From Escherichia phage vB_EcoM_VR7, in the sequence record NC_014792.1: 64,000 nucleotides of DNA. One strand, given 5' to 3'. The notes below the pieces were generated by a model. It was not told where the DNA came from. It was given only the letters and a program-made list of their open reading frames with translations, and did not search any database. The translations under genes were made by a program, and so were the position numbers. This document shows positions 28,002 through 51,558 of the stretch, piece after piece (positions within the stretch are counted from its first letter, which is position 1; each line of letters begins with the position of its first letter).

Positions 28002-30308
<2,307 letters not shown>

Positions 30309-30337: not shown

Positions 30338-32317
30338 ATGGCTTTATTATCCCCGGGCATTGAGCTCAAAGAAACAACGGTCCAAAGCACTGTTGTTCGT
30401 AACGCGACGGGTCGTGCGGCGCTGGTTGGTAAATTCCAGTGGGGCCCAGCTTTCCAGGTAACTCAGATTACAAACGAAGTGGAACTTGTTGATTTGTTTG
30501 GTGGTCCGAACAATATCACAGCTGACTACTTTATGAGTGGAATGAACTTCCTTCAATATGGTAATGACCTGCGCACAGTTCGTGTAGTTAACCGCGACCA
30601 CGCTAAAAACGCATCCCCGGTAGCAGGGAACATCGAAAGTACAATCGCTACTGCAGGTTCTAACTATGCAGTCGGTGACGTTATCCAGGTTAAACACAAC
30701 CAGACTGTTGTTGAAACTTCTGGCCGTATTACCAAGGTTGACGTTGACGGGAAAATCCTCGCGGTCTTCATTCCGTCTGACAAAATTATTGCCTTTGCAA
30801 AATCTGTAAACCAGTATCCGGACCTTGGTCCAGCGTGGACTGCTGAAATCCTGACCACTTCTTCAGGTGTGTCTGGTACGATTACCCTTGGGAAAATTGT
30901 CACCGATTCTGGTATCCTGTTGACCGAAGCAGAAAATAGCGAAGAAGCTATTACCTCTTTGGAATTCCAGGCTTCCCTGCAGAAATATGCAATGCCGGGT
31001 GTTGTTGCTCTTTATCCTGGTGAAATCGGCTCGACTCTCGAAGTTGAAATCGTTTCCAAAGCTGCATATGATGTTGGCGCTTCGAAGATGCTTGACATTT
31101 ATCCGAATGGTGGTTCCCGTGCTTCTGTTGCTCGTGCGGTGTTTAACTATGGTCCGCAGACTGACGACCAGTATGCAATCATCGTTCGTCGTGATGGTGC
31201 TATCGTTGAAAACGTTGTTCTGTCAACCAAAGAAGGCGATAAAGACGTTTACGGCAACAACATTTATCTGGACGACTACTTTGCAAAAGGTACTTCCAAT
31301 TACATCTATGCAACTTCTCTGAACTGGCCAAAAGGCTTTGCAGGCATCATCAATCTGATGGGCGGTATTTCTGCAAACGACCAGGTTACTGCTGGTGATT
31401 TGATGCAAGGTTGGGACCTGTTTGCTGACCGTGAAGCACTGCATATTAACCTGCTTATCGCTGGTGCAGTAGCTGGTGAAGGTGATGCAACCGCTTCAAC
31501 TGTTCAGAAGCACGTGGTTTCTATCGCTGACGAACGTCAGGATTGCCTGGCATTTATCTCTCCACCAAAAGGCCTTCTGGTTAACGTTCCTCTGACCCGT
31601 GCAGTGGATAACCTGATTGACTGGCGTACAGGTGGCGGCTCATTCGATACTGATAACATGAATATCAGCACGACTTATGCAGCGATTGATGGCAACTATA
31701 AATATCAGTATGATAAATATAACGACGTTAACCGTTGGGTTCCTCTGGCAGCTGATATGGCTGGTCTGTGTGCTCGTACTGATGATGTTTCTCAGCCTTG
31801 GATGTCTCCGCCCGGTTATAACCGTGGTCAGATTCTGAACGTACTGAAATTGGCTATCGAACCTCGTCAGACCCAACGTGACCGCATGTATCAAGAAGCT
31901 ATCAACCCGGTTGTTGGTTTCGCAGGTGGTGATGGTTTTGTTCTTTACGGTGATAAGACTGCAACTAAAGTTCCATCTCCGATGGACCATATCAACGTTC
32001 GTCGTCTTACGAATATGCTGAAGAAAAATATCGGTGACGCATCCAAATATAAACTGTTTGAGCTTAACGATAACTTCACTCGTGCATCATTCCGTATGGA
32101 AACTTCTCAATACTTGGATGGTATTCGTGCGCTCGGTGGCATTTATGAAGGTCGTGTAGTTTGTGATACTACCAACAACACCCCATCGGTTATTGACCGA
32201 AATGAATTTGTTGCTAGCATATATTATAAACCGGCAAGGTCGATAAATTATATCGTGCTTAATTTCGTAGCAACAAGTACGGGCGCTGATTTTGATGAGT
32301 TGATTGGGGTGCAATAA
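30338..32317 (+). CDS. 18: gp18 tail sheath protein
   Basis: 659 aa; synteny. Confidence 0.92.
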   Translation: MALLSPGIELKETTVQSTVVRNATGRAALVGKFQWGPAFQVTQITNEVELVDLFGGPNNITADYFMSGMNFLQYGNDLRTVRVVNRDHAKNASPVAGNIESTIATAGSNYAVGDVIQVKHNQTVVETSGRITKVDVDGKILAVFIPSDKIIAFAKSVNQYPDLGPAWTAEILTTSSGVSGTITLGKIVTDSGILLTEAENSEEAITSLEFQASLQKYAMPGVVALYPGEIGSTLEVEIVSKAAYDVGASKMLDIYPNGGSRASVARAVFNYGPQTDDQYAIIVRRDGAIVENVVLSTKEGDKDVYGNNIYLDDYFAKGTSNYIYATSLNWPKGFAGIINLMGGISANDQVTAGDLMQGWDLFADREALHINLLIAGAVAGEGDATASTVQKHVVSIADERQDCLAFISPPKGLLVNVPLTRAVDNLIDWRTGGGSFDTDNMNISTTYAAIDGNYKYQYDKYNDVNRWVPLAADMAGLCARTDDVSQPWMSPPGYNRGQILNVLKLAIEPRQTQRDRMYQEAINPVVGFAGGDGFVLYGDKTATKVPSPMDHINVRRLTNMLKKNIGDASKYKLFELNDNFTRASFRMETSQYLDGIRALGGIYEGRVVCDTTNNTPSVIDRNEFVASIYYKPARSINYIVLNFVATSTGADFDELIGVQ

Positions 32318-32359
32318 GACTTTACTTCTGATTTAACTTGGGTTATAATGCGCGTATGA

Positions 32360-32367
32360 TATAAATA
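32360..32367 (+). promoter_or_regulatory. T4 late promoter TATAAATA embedded in hairpin GCGCGTA/TACGCGC, upstream of the HNH gene
   Basis: Inverted repeat 32350-32356 / 32366-32372 with TATAAATA at 32360-32367. Confidence 0.55.
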
Positions 32368-32384
32368 CGCGCAAGGATTTACAA

Positions 32385-32990
32385 GTGATTATTTCTAAAT
32401 TTGTTGAAGTTCAAATACGAAATCATGCAAAGTGGTGGAGCGAATACTTAGGTAAACCTCTAACATACCATGATGTGATTTCTGTTCCAGTTGAACAAAT
32501 GCCAGATAATAGTAATAAAAAGATTGAGTGTTCCTGTGATGAATGTGGGATACATTTTGAGCGAGGGATTCAGTTGCTTCGTCGCGTTGATAAACATTTA
32601 TGTAAGGCATGTTCAAGAAAAGATATTGGACAAAAGAATGTTATTGCACAAGGCGGTGTGCCAAGACCATGGCAACGTGGTGAAAAACATCATAGCTGGA
32701 AAGGCAATAAGCGTGAATTCTATTTGTACGCTCAACGTGTTCATGCATTGACAAGAGCAAAACATCTAAAGAATATTTGGTCAACATGGGAAAATGCAGA
32801 TAAGATAGGAAAATGTGGGGAAGAAGGTGCATACCAACTTGACCATAAAGTTTCTATTGCGTATGGATTTTATAATCATATACCAGAGACTGTTATCGCT
32901 TCGCTCAACAATTTAGAAATAGTCACTTGGGAATCTAATAGGTCCAAAGGAAAATCAAATAGTATTGACTTATGGGATATATTATCCTGA
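32385..32990 (+). CDS. HNH homing endonuclease (freestanding) inserted between genes 18 and 19
   Basis: 201 aa; GTG start with AAGGA RBS; Cys pairs CSCDEC / CKAC and HNH core QLDHKVS...NLEIVTWESN; genes 18 and 19 are adjacent in T4. Confidence 0.85.
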   Translation: MIISKFVEVQIRNHAKWWSEYLGKPLTYHDVISVPVEQMPDNSNKKIECSCDECGIHFERGIQLLRRVDKHLCKACSRKDIGQKNVIAQGGVPRPWQRGEKHHSWKGNKREFYLYAQRVHALTRAKHLKNIWSTWENADKIGKCGEEGAYQLDHKVSIAYGFYNHIPETVIASLNNLEIVTWESNRSKGKSNSIDLWDILS

Positions 32991-33014
32991 CAGTAAATGT
33001 AATTAAGCAGTAAA

Positions 33015-33067
33015 CCGTAGAACCATTATACAATGCTATAAATAAAAGCATATCATCGGTTCTACGG
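33015..33067 (+). promoter_or_regulatory. Long hairpin (10-bp stem CCGTAGAACC/GGTTCTACGG, 33-nt loop) containing a TATAAATA motif
   Basis: Perfect inverted repeat 33015-33024 / 33058-33067; loop has tataaata at 33037-33044; lies just downstream of the HNH gene. Confidence 0.55.
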
Positions 33068-33125
33068 ACTCCTCAGAGCTTCCCCAGCGACCTAAATACA
33101 TTTATTGATGAATCATATTACCTAG

Positions 33126-33133
33126 TATAAATA
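33126..33133 (+). promoter_or_regulatory. T4 late promoter TATAAATA (gene 19)
   Basis: Exact TATAAATA upstream of the gp19 ATG at 33186. Confidence 0.65.
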
Positions 33134-33185
33134 CATGCATCAGGGACGCGTTCGCGCGACCTGTGTCTATAAAGAGGATTCCTTA

Positions 33186-33677
33186 ATGGAGTTGACCGAT
33201 ATCACACGCGCTTTCGAATCCGGTGACTTTGCTCGCCCTAACCTGTTCGAAGTCGAAATCCCATTCCTGGGTAAAAACTTTGCTTTCCATTGTAAAGCAG
33301 CCCCGATGCCAGCAGGCATTGTAGAAAAAGTACCAGTTGGTTACATGAACCGTAAAATCAACGTCGCGGGAGACCGTACATTTGATGACTGGACTATTAC
33401 GATTTATAACGACGATGCTCATAAAGTTCGTCAAGCAATTGTTGATTGGCAAAATATGTGTCACGGTATGACCAACGAAATTACCGGTGCAGCTCCTGCT
33501 GATTATAAGAAAACCGCTACTGTCCGCCAGTTCCATCGTGATGGCAAGACCATTACTAAAGAAGTTGTTATCACCGGTATGTGGCCAACTAACGTTGGGG
33601 AAGTCCAGATGGATTGGGATTCGAATAATGAGATTGAGACATTCGAAACTACGTTTGCAATTGACTGGTGGGAATAA
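33186..33677 (+). CDS. 19: gp19 tail tube protein
   Basis: ORF track 33135.. trimmed to the ATG at 33186 (AAAGAGGA RBS); MELTDITRAFESGDFARPNLFEVE matches the T4 gp19 N-terminus. Confidence 0.9.
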   Translation: MELTDITRAFESGDFARPNLFEVEIPFLGKNFAFHCKAAPMPAGIVEKVPVGYMNRKINVAGDRTFDDWTITIYNDDAHKVRQAIVDWQNMCHGMTNEITGAAPADYKKTATVRQFHRDGKTITKEVVITGMWPTNVGEVQMDWDSNNEIETFETTFAIDWWE

Positions 33678-33678
33678 G

Positions 33679-33686
33679 TATAAATA
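33679..33686 (+). promoter_or_regulatory. T4 late promoter TATAAATA (gene 20)
   Basis: Exact motif between 19 and 20. Confidence 0.65.
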
Positions 33687-33734
33687 AAGTTATTATGAGG
33701 CTTCGGCCTCATTTCCCAAACTTCGGAGACTCTA

Positions 33735-35309
33735 ATGGCAGGTTTTAATACAATACTAAATTTTCTTAAGCCTTGGGCTAAAGAAGATGAACAAGAATAT
33801 AAGCAACAAGAAAAAAATAATTTAGAGTCAATGACCGGGCCGAAGTTTGATGATGGGGCTCGCGAAATTGAGTCACAAGAACAAAACGTCCCGTATAATG
33901 CATTGATGCAACAGATGTTCGGGAGCAACGAACCTGAAGTAAAAAACACCAGGGAATTAATTGACACATACCGCAACCTACTAAATAATTATGAAGTTGA
34001 TAACGCGGTGCAAGAAATTGTGTCTGATGCTATCGTTTTTGAAGATGGTAAAGATGTCGTAGCTCTTAACCTTGATGCTACTGAATTTAGTCAGAAAATT
34101 AAAGACCGAATTCTCGAAGAATTCTCGGAAGTTAATAACCTCCTTAATTTCGAGCGTAAAGGTTCTGACCACTTTAAACGTTGGTATGTGGATTCTCGAA
34201 TTTTCTTCCACAAAATTATCAACCCTTCAAAACTTAAAGAAGGCGTTCAAGAACTTCGTCGCCTTGACCCAAGACAAATCCAGTTCATCCGTGAAATCGT
34301 TACACGCATGGAAAATGGTACGAAAATTGTTGACGGTTACAGAGAATATTTTGTATACGATACAGGTCATGAAAGTTATTGTGCCGATGGTCGTATATAT
34401 GAAGCGGGTACTAAAATAAAAATTCCTCGTGCGGCAATTGTATATGCACATTCCGGATTACTTGATTGTTGTGGTAAGAATATCATCGGATACCTGCAAC
34501 GAGCAATCAAACCTGCAAACCAATTAAAACTATTAGAAGATGCTTTAGTCATTTATCGTATAACTCGTGCGCCAGACCGCCGAGTCTTTTATATCGATAC
34601 TGGGAATATGCCGTCTCGCAAAGCAGCAGCACATATGCAACATATTATGAACACGATGAAAAACCGTGTCGTATATGATGCAACTACGGGTAAAATCAAA
34701 AACCAACAGCATAATATGTCAATGACAGAAGACTATTGGTTGCAACGTCGCGACGGTAAAGCAGTCACCGAAGTTGATACTCTCCCAGGTGCACAAGGCA
34801 TGTCGGATATGGATGATGTTCGCTGGTTTAAGAACAACCTATATCAGGCTCTCAGAATTCCATTATCTCGTATCCCTAATGACCAGAACAGTGGCGTTAT
34901 GTTTGATGCGGGGGCGACAATTACTCGCGATGAATTGAATTTCTCTAAATGGATTAGACAACTACAGAATAAATTTGAAGAAGTTTTCCTCGACCCGCTT
35001 AAAACCAACCTTATCCTGAAAAAAGTTATTTCAGAAGAGGAATGGGACAAGGAACTAAATAATATTAAAGTTACGTTCAACCGTGATAGCTATTTCACCG
35101 AAATGAAAGATGCAGAAATCATGGAACGCAGAATCAATATGCTAACGATGGCTGAACCGTTTATCGGTAAATATATTTCGCATCAAACTGCAATGAAGGA
35201 TTTCCTCCAGATGTCTGATGAAGAAATTAATCAAGAAGCTAAGCAAATTGAATTGGAGTCCAAAGAGGCTCGTTTCCAAAACCCTGAAGAAGAAGAAGAG
35301 GATTTCTAA
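33735..35309 (+). CDS. 20: gp20 portal vertex protein
   Basis: 524 aa; synteny. Confidence 0.92.
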
Positions 35310-51546: not shown

Positions 51547-51558
51547 TATTTATAAATA
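51547..51558. promoter_or_regulatory. Overlapping divergent T4 late promoters (TATTTATAAATA): minus for 26-25, plus for 51-27
   Basis: Plus tataaata 51551-51558; minus TATAAATA 51554..51547. Confidence 0.6.

Follow-up and report, generated by a model that had tools for sequence, protein, structure and literature searches.

In T4-type phages, the mob genes, among them mobE of T4 and of Aeh1 at nrdA/nrdB, are free-standing HNH homing endonuclease genes that lie between two conserved essential genes; they are sporadic among close relatives and keep the same address in distant phages. For I-TevI, I-TevII, I-TevIII, segB and Aeh1 mobE, late promoters are located inside hairpins that occlude the ribosome-binding site, the Aeh1 mobE hairpin being part of the leader RNA, and in seg43(25) of Aeromonas phage 25 the hairpin lies just upstream of that site (PMC2988022). 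Here we describe a locus that shares several of these features, in a stretch of 64,000 nucleotides of Escherichia phage vB_EcoM_VR7 (NC_014792.1) that was analysed as a whole and is called the window. Between gene 18 (tail sheath, 30338-32317, plus strand) and gene 19 (tail tube, 33186-33677, plus strand) lies an open reading frame (ORF) of 201 amino acids with a GTG start (32385-32990, plus strand). It belongs to the ORF19.1 family, first recorded in phage T6, to which neither the ORF19.1 records nor PHROGs assign a function. Like the mob genes, the ORF stands free between two conserved essential genes, is sporadic among close relatives and recurs at the same address in distant phages. Sequence comparisons suggest, with a probability that we put at about 0.72, that the region is a free-standing homing-endonuclease-like cassette with putative cleavage and homing activities.

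The insert and its empty sites

The window comes from a T4-type phage of the Gaprivervirus group, whose closest records are TH57 (97.4% identical over 31800-33700), DK-13 and RZ. Genes 18 and 19 were assigned from Pfam sheath domains (E 1e-38 to 1e-9) and from PF06841, respectively. In T4 the two genes are separated by 116 nt and no gene lies between them, as the initial annotation of the window had stated when it described the ORF as inserted between two neighbours. Comparison with related T4-like genomes, which it had proposed for defining the boundaries, gave clean junctions. In every carrier, the left one directly follows the gp18 TAA; on the right, homology to empty sites resumes at TAATTA(A)GCAGTAAACCG, at ~32999, ~8 nt past the ORF stop. 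Based on these junctions, the cassette extends over ~32318-32998 (plus strand, ~681 bp) and consists of a leader, the ORF and an 8-nt tail.

Roughly 665 bp are missing at this place from about 25 records of close relatives, including VR25, TH15, SP18 and VR20. The gp19 protein of empty-site VR25 is 100% identical to that of the window. Full-length matches to the cassette were found only in TH57 (99.9% identity) and in DK-13 and RZ (96.0%), which makes four records counting the window, and variant alleles of the locus are present in DCP80 and VR26. Relative to most close relatives the ORF is thus an insertion, as had been claimed, and its presence or absence is polymorphic at one precise site.

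Homologues of the ORF were detected in 238 phage records, compared with 2,009 records that contain gp19 (~12%). In every locus that we opened they were located between the sheath and tube genes, in RB3, ECML-134, T6, Klebsiella phage Roth19 and Acinetobacter phage Acj61 as well as in Bp7, vB_EcoM_005, Sinorhizobium phage phiM7 and five metagenome contigs. The T6/ECML-134 type is ~59% identical to the window ORF and has the same 18/19 address and the same GTG start, which is also the annotated start of T6 ORF19.1. The initial annotation had set against its own view the possibility of an ancestral gene conserved at this position. The address is indeed conserved across the T4 superfamily, but the genes found there are not co-inherited with their flanks.

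Signs of lateral movement

The divergence of the ORF was compared with that of the adjacent gene 18. Between RB3 and ECML-134, gp18 is 99% identical and the ORF 57%; between PSD9 and Bp7 the values are 99% and 40%, and between the window and DCP80, 97% and 61%. The window ORF is ~60% identical to the ECML-134 type, which belongs to another genus, and is thus as close to it as to the DCP80 allele of its own genus.

A recent exchange is apparent from the comparison with TH57, which differs from the window at 2 of 839 nt across 32301-33139 (99.8% identical) and at 24 of 170 nt just upstream of this block (86% identical). Those 170 nt of the window correspond to the VR26 haplotype: the last 68 nt of gp18 are identical to VR26 and differ from TH57 at many positions. 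As identity to TH57 jumps at the left edge of the cassette, a recombination breakpoint was placed there. The discordance between the ORF and its flanks, together with the block shared with TH57, is of the kind left by transfer with co-converted flanks and bears out the laterally moving behaviour that the initial annotation had attributed to this unit.

Traces of the insertion itself were found in Dhakavirus carriers. Nine nucleotides of the ancestral gp18 end, TTAGTATAA, are repeated downstream of their cassette (UGJNEcP3, L003 1507-1535; PSD9, L019 3707-3735), and their functional gp18 end is synonymously recoded, from CCT TTA GTA to CCA CTA GTT. Because of this remnant and of the recoding, we place the Dhakavirus insertion point inside the last gp18 codons. 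A possible remnant of the same sort in the window, ACAGTAA after the ORF stop compared with the gp18 end ACAATAA, was rejected, as a match at 6/7 positions is too weak.

The ORF of DCP80 (L018 2057-2707) is a chimera. Its N-terminal half is of a long type, like those of the Dhakavirus and Klebsiella alleles, and its C-terminal half and 3' flank are nucleotide-identical to the window type over the aligned stretch. The DCP80 record contains a run of N in gp19.

The ORF product

The ORF protein matches phrog_5104 at E 6e-77, a PHROGs family whose function is listed as unknown. Across 21 homologues, the N-terminal MIISKxV is conserved, and the four cysteines of a CxxC...CxxC zinc-binding module (C51, C54, C73 and C76; 32535-32612, plus strand) are invariant in 21/21. 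The Pfam model DUF4379, 'treble clef zinc finger', matches 6 of the 21 family members, although weakly (best E 8e-4), and searches with PDB sequences and profiles yielded weak matches of this module to the zinc modules of mS66. The zinc-binding N-terminal half presumably recognises DNA.

The C-terminal half contains a predicted beta-beta-alpha-metal (HNH-like) nuclease core (32832-32948, plus strand). When 90 diverse sequences, 25-64% identical to the window protein, were aligned, only D153, H154, N176 and N185 proved invariant; the cysteines are not among these four columns. An AlphaFold model built from this alignment (predicted local distance difference test, pLDDT, 96.1) places the invariant residues on a strand-strand-helix unit: the strand 150-154 ends in D153-H154, N176 precedes the strand 177-181, and N185, nine residues after N176, lies in the helix 182-188. 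As modelled, the core of a beta-hairpin and an alpha-helix resembles solved HNH nucleases, and it provides the elements of the HNH motif, namely a conserved general-base His that closes strand 1, an Asn with a structural role, and an Asn/His metal ligand in the helix. A D-H...N...N motif is also present in I-HmuI of phage SPO1. Foldseek returned nothing significant for the ORF protein in the PDB; the best structural matches are active HNH nucleases, and the small HNH nicking endonucleases of Geobacter (Gme HNH, 4h9d) and of phage GVE2 (5h0o) served for comparison.

The initial annotation had described a 201-amino-acid HNH protein with Cys pairs. The length and the pairs (C51/C54 and C73/C76) stand, whereas the HNH assignment finds no counterpart in sequence libraries and was recovered from the fold and the motif. 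Thus, the label 'HNH' is used here because of the predicted fold and the conserved motif. We read the protein as a zinc-finger recognition half joined to a C-terminal HNH-type half with putative nuclease activity. Unlike the mob HNH enzymes, it has no detectable similarity to Pfam HNH models, and its nuclease domain is C-terminal, preceded by a treble-clef-like zinc module. A Pfam scan of the 21 members gave one match to HNH_4 (E 0.078) and one to HNH_5 (E 6.8).

A profile search retrieved 3,882 cluster representatives (50% identity) at E <= 0.001, and many of these relatives share only the C-terminal ~100 residues, behind different N-termini. Pfam scans of ten multi-domain relatives detected DUF7487 and zinc modules only; none of the ten has a known nuclease domain through which the family could be linked by transitivity. 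In the longer relatives P0104, P0119, P0155 and P0164, the C-terminal domain is joined to DUF7487, a Pfam domain whose function is not known. The C-terminal domain has no Pfam model despite its thousands of cluster representatives. No paralogue of the ORF was found elsewhere in the 64-kb window.

The cassette leader

We aligned the leaders of six cassettes, those of the window, DK-13, DCP80, a Dhakavirus and two metagenome contigs. A conserved sigma-70-type (-35/-10) promoter-like site, TTTACT-17 nt-TATAAT, is located at 32321-32349 (plus strand) and had been missed in the initial annotation. It matches the consensus at 10/12 positions and would function as a promoter of the cassette. Its hexamers and the 17-nt spacing are invariant in the six leaders, in which the spacers themselves differ, and motifs of this type occur three times in the 64 kb, both strands included. 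We considered the -35-like element as the MotA box of a middle promoter and rejected it, as it lies 19 nt from the -10 element; in middle promoters this distance is about 12 nt.

The -10 element runs into a hairpin (32349-32373, plus strand) with a 7-nt loop and a 9-bp stem, UGCGCGUAU/AUACGCGCA (arms 32349-32357 and 32365-32373, 9/9 complementary). The upstream inverted repeat GCGCGTA/TACGCGC of the initial annotation is the 7-nt core of this stem. The hairpin has a folding energy of -14.1 kcal/mol (z = -4.84), which 0/200 shuffles equalled, and it lies directly upstream of the Shine-Dalgarno sequence AAGGA (32373-32377). An outer stem, ACUUG (32336-32340) with CAAGU (32382-32386), encloses it (32336-32386, plus strand). 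This second stem is present in both the minimum free energy and the centroid structures, and the initial G and U of the GUG start codon are paired in it. The fold of 32330-32395 has a z of -4.72, while the RNA from 32373 onward is unstructured (z = +0.36).

In the six leaders, the inner stem is 100% paired, with three pairs changed on both sides, and the outer helix is 83% paired, with one G-C to A-U double change. Taking both stems together, 94% of cells are paired and 4 pairs are changed on both sides, compared with 26-66% paired in slid controls. The upstream hairpin is a part of the cassette and has been kept by compensatory changes.

The hairpin also harbours a T4 late-promoter motif, TATAAATA, in its loop and 3' arm (32360-32367, plus strand). 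This motif is restricted to the lineage of the window, TH57, DK-13 and RZ. At the same place the loop reads AATAAATA in DCP80, in which the stem is kept, ACACA in the Dhakavirus carriers and CTAAATA in L023. The alignment thus presents TATAAATA as a lineage-specific addition to the leader, whose conserved parts are the stems and the sigma-70-type promoter. Every homologue that we examined has a strong hairpin right before the ribosome-binding site, often of unrelated sequence. RB3 has the stem GGGGCTTCGGCCCC, of which GGGACTTCGGTCCC in L025 is a compensated variant, Acj61 has an 11-bp stem with an embedded TATAAATA, and in phiM7 a canonical terminator follows the sheath gene. The leader of the RB3/ECML-134 type is a promoter-less GGGGCTTCGGCCCC hairpin, whereas that of the window is a GCGCG hairpin with sigma-70-type and late-promoter motifs.

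Transcription is predicted to start at ~32355-32358 from the sigma-70-type promoter, whose TATAAT ends at 32349, and at ~32373-32375 from the late motif, which ends at 32367; that is, inside or after the stem. Transcripts of the cassette itself would accordingly be devoid of the 5' arm of the structure. Because both cassette promoters would start inside or after the hairpin, only read-through RNA from gene 18 could form the stems.

This layout parallels that published for I-TevI, I-TevII, I-TevIII, segB and Aeh1 mobE (PMC2988022). As in the three I-Tev genes and segB, a stable hairpin that precedes the endonuclease ORF closely contains a late-promoter motif, and only read-through transcripts can form the structure. 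It also departs from it. The inner hairpin of the window leaves the Shine-Dalgarno sequence free and the 5-bp outer stem alone touches the start codon; the read-through RNA is itself late, coming from gene 18, so that the contrast is not between early and late transcripts; and sister cassettes have kept the sigma-70-type promoter but not the loop promoter. The hairpin of seg43(25), just upstream of its ribosome-binding site, is closer to the arrangement of the window (PMC2988022).

Downstream hairpin and gene 19 promoter

TATAAATA recurs downstream of the ORF at 33037-33044 and 33126-33133, and every motif of the initial annotation was found in the sequence at the coordinates it had given. The first of these copies lies in the 33-nt loop of a hairpin (33015-33067, plus strand) whose 10-bp stem is 10/10 complementary (arms 33015-33024 and 33058-33067). 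It folds at -19.2 kcal/mol (z = -6.35), and 0/200 shuffles folded as well. The empty-site relatives VR25, TH15, SP18 and VR20 have the same hairpin with an almost identical sequence. The second copy (plus strand) is the predicted late promoter of gene 19, 52 nt upstream of the gp19 ATG (33186), and it is identical in carriers and in empty-site relatives. Since both are found at empty sites, the downstream hairpin and the gene 19 promoter are resident elements, and a cassette origin of the hairpin, which the initial annotation had considered, was rejected. T4 itself has two hairpins between genes 18 and 19, each followed by TATAAATA, and L025 has the same layout of hairpin and late promoter with unrelated stem sequences. 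In L027 the downstream stem is kept and the loop motif is AATAAATA. The downstream elements, which are inside the block shared with TH57, would at most be co-transferred as flank. Thus, of the late-promoter-containing structures that the cassette had been proposed to bring along, the upstream leader with its hairpin and promoter travels with it, the late motif of that leader is not conserved, and the downstream hairpin belongs to the site.

Between the hairpin and the gene 19 promoter, both nearly identical in the two allele classes, a patch of ~40 nt (33069-33107, plus strand) is almost fully different between carrier and empty alleles. A 2-nt indel in the loop of the downstream hairpin also separates them. 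The patch moves with the cassette, being part of the 32301-33139 block that is 99.8% identical in TH57. It may serve as a target or confer immunity, or it may simply be donor flank. Two candidate targets of the enzyme can be named: this patch and, in empty alleles, the junction between the gp18 stop and the intergenic region (CAATAA|TTATCATCGC...).

A GC-rich imperfect palindrome, CAGGGACGCGTTCGCGCGACCTG, occupies 33137-33166, in the predicted 5' untranslated region of the gene 19 late transcript. It is kept in all Gapriverviruses compared, and its fold is not significantly better than that of shuffles (z = -1.27). A scan of 32200-33300 against Rfam detected no family, even at E <= 1.

It is possible, although we consider it somewhat unlikely, that both hairpins are primarily transcript-end elements, that is, terminators or 3' stabilisers of the gene 18 and ORF messages, which would play no particular part in the control of the nuclease gene, with TATAAATA occurring incidentally in AT-rich loops. 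T4 and its relatives do place a hairpin directly after gene 18 and TATAAATA after it, and the canonical terminator of phiM7 occupies the equivalent position. Leaders of the RB3 and L025 types resemble weak terminators, with a GC stem and then a U-rich tract, and the lack of conservation of the leader-loop motif in sister leaders would also fit. Neither hairpin of the window, however, is followed by a U-run, and a terminator scan found none on the plus strand. The outer stem that pairs with the start codon has been kept by compensatory change, and the promoter hexamers around the stem are invariant, neither of which favours such a role. Transcript-end functions would in any case be compatible with a homing-endonuclease-like cassette.

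Other inserts around genes 18 to 20

A distant paralogue of 223-227 amino acids, 27-32% identical to the window ORF by tblastn, was found in VR26 (L002 1025-1708), Bp7 (L010 2501-3172) and vB_EcoM_005 (L021 3001-3684). It occupies a second position, downstream of the resident hairpin, and ends 3-37 nt before the gp19 ATG. VR26, which carries this paralogue, and the insert-free SP18 have at least 10 synonymous changes in common within the first 40 nt of gp19, compared with the window (33186-33226) and other relatives; to judge from the sequences, these changes look like an immunity or co-conversion tract of the second element.

Small ORFs are also present between gp19 and gp20 in Bp7 (L010 3769-4350), L021 (4247-4828), L025 (1615-2211), L026 (1332-1928) and L027 (1908-2480). 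One of them is annotated as an HNH endonuclease and another has a faint match to NUMOD3. In the window, gp19 and gp20 are direct neighbours and no such ORF is present. Inserts of this kind seem to have a hotspot in the 18-19-20 stretch. Further afield, Klebsiella jumbo phage phiKp_21 has a 323-amino-acid ORF right after nrdA (L022 2323-3294) whose C-terminal region is 37% identical to residues 108-200 of the window protein; based on this ORF, the nuclease-like module is also found, with another N-terminus, at the classic nrdA-side location of homing endonucleases.

In the window, the locus is preceded by the gp17 terminase gene (28473-30305) and followed by the gp20 portal gene (33735-35309). 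The 64 kb contain 21 copies of TATAAATA, compared with 4.4 +/- 2.1 in shuffles, and 0/100 shuffles reached 21. Two of these copies overlap on opposite strands (51547-51554, minus, and 51551-51558, plus), and their arrangement suggests divergent late promoters.

Discussion

We propose that, in a mixed infection, a related phage without the gene would have its sheath/tube junction cut or nicked by the enzyme, and that repair of the cut genome by recombination would copy in the cassette together with some flanking DNA. The cassette would carry its own expression signals, namely the sigma-70-type promoter, the GC-rich hairpin, the outer stem, the AAGGA sequence and a weak GTG start. The leader stems would form only on read-through RNA from the heavily transcribed gene 18, and transcripts initiated at the cassette promoters would leave the ribosome-binding site free. 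In this manner the leader may shield the nuclease gene from gene 18 read-through and allow low expression of its own.

Several observations weigh against this interpretation. Cleavage, a target site or a homing event has been demonstrated for no member of the family, and in the literature on ORF19.1/gp19.1, on homing endonucleases at genes 18/19 and on the VR phages we found nothing on this gene. The window protein has no Pfam match of any kind at E <= 1, and thus none to the HNH models (PF01844, PF13391, PF13395, PF14279 and related ones). NCBIfam yielded no match to the protein or its profile, and sequence and profile searches of the PDB, with profiles of 21 and 90 sequences, retrieved no HNH entry; the matches were to zinc fingers or due to chance. 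In the Gaprivervirus carriers, no gp18 substitution is consistently linked to the insert; the source of carrier immunity would have to be either the insertion itself or the 33069-33107 patch. As for the leader, the transcription starts are predictions. Its inner stem overlaps only the first A of the Shine-Dalgarno sequence, which is otherwise unpaired, and just the 5-bp outer stem reaches the start codon, so that little of the initiation region is occluded and translational repression may be weak. Lastly, the address is kept as far out as phiM7 (gp18 41% and ORF 36% identical), which would also fit an old, often-lost resident gene.

The latter alternative supposes an accessory gene of the sheath/tube junction that was inherited vertically in the T4 superfamily, lost repeatedly (T4, VR25 and SP18), shuffled by ordinary homologous recombination and is not mobile at present, with a nuclease or DNA-binding activity that serves the phage, for instance in DNA processing or competition. 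Such a gene would be found at the same address in every genus examined, including that of phiM7, as is the case, and strong purifying selection acts on the catalytic-looking residues and zinc ligands. Moreover, T4-type genomes are mosaic everywhere, with gp18 identity ranging from 73% to 100%, and breakpoints near the cassette are thus not unique. Vertical descent does not readily account, however, for ORF divergence that is uncoupled from that of gp18 within genera (57 versus 99%, 40 versus 99% and 61 versus 97%), for the presence of the ORF in only ~12% of the gp19-bearing phage records, or for a 99.8% block shared by two phages beside 170 nt at 86%. The recoded flanks and the gp18-end remnant mark insertion sites and are usual signatures of homing elements. 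We therefore regard a resident gene as distinctly unlikely.

It is very improbable that the protein is a zinc-finger nucleic-acid-binding regulator without nuclease activity, binding for example the leader palindrome or the resident hairpin to tune the sheath:tube ratio and keeping its HNH likeness as a structural relic: the failure of HNH models from Pfam, NCBIfam or PDB sequences to match, the zinc module being the sole part with sequence-level matches (DUF4379 and mS66), the palindromes overlapping promoters on both sides of the gene and the precedent of I-TevI, which both homes and acts as a repressor of its own late promoter (PMC2988022), speak for it, but the only residues invariant in 90 sequences are the D-H...N...N of the beta-beta-alpha core and not the cysteines, the top structural matches are active HNH nucleases, and genes 18 and 19 are expressed in T4 and most relatives although these lack the protein.

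A homing-endonuclease-like cassette leaves room for a broader and more speculative proposal, which we think unlikely to hold in full. The ORF19.1 family may represent an undescribed branch of His-Me-finger nucleases, whose members in the T4 superfamily would form a site-faithful homing lineage at the sheath stop, from coliphages to the Sinorhizobium phage. They would persist in part by supplying hairpin and promoter signals that separate sheath from tube expression, which would make their loss costly, and diversify by N-terminal swaps, as in DCP80, and by moves to the gp19 start, as in VR26/Bp7.

GenBank labels of some family members (H70, H116, H123 and H137) read 'type II restriction endonuclease', 'putative head morphogenesis protein' or 'holin', which look like annotation-transfer errors. 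Hundreds of T4-type genomes label the gene 'hypothetical protein', for which 'putative HNH-type homing endonuclease' would be a better name. Current concepts are unchanged by these findings, as the type of gene, its sporadic distribution and control by hairpins and promoters are established T4 themes; the cassette is an uncharacterised member of a well-known class of T4-type elements and an ordinary feature of T4-type genomes. Nevertheless, mobile nuclease genes turn out to have a hotspot at the sheath/tube junction, with at least two insertion positions and several alleles. The family would provide a compact zinc-finger and HNH nuclease whose presumed recognition half varies naturally between alleles, and such genes can bias the inheritance of markers in mixed infections and in phage cocktails.

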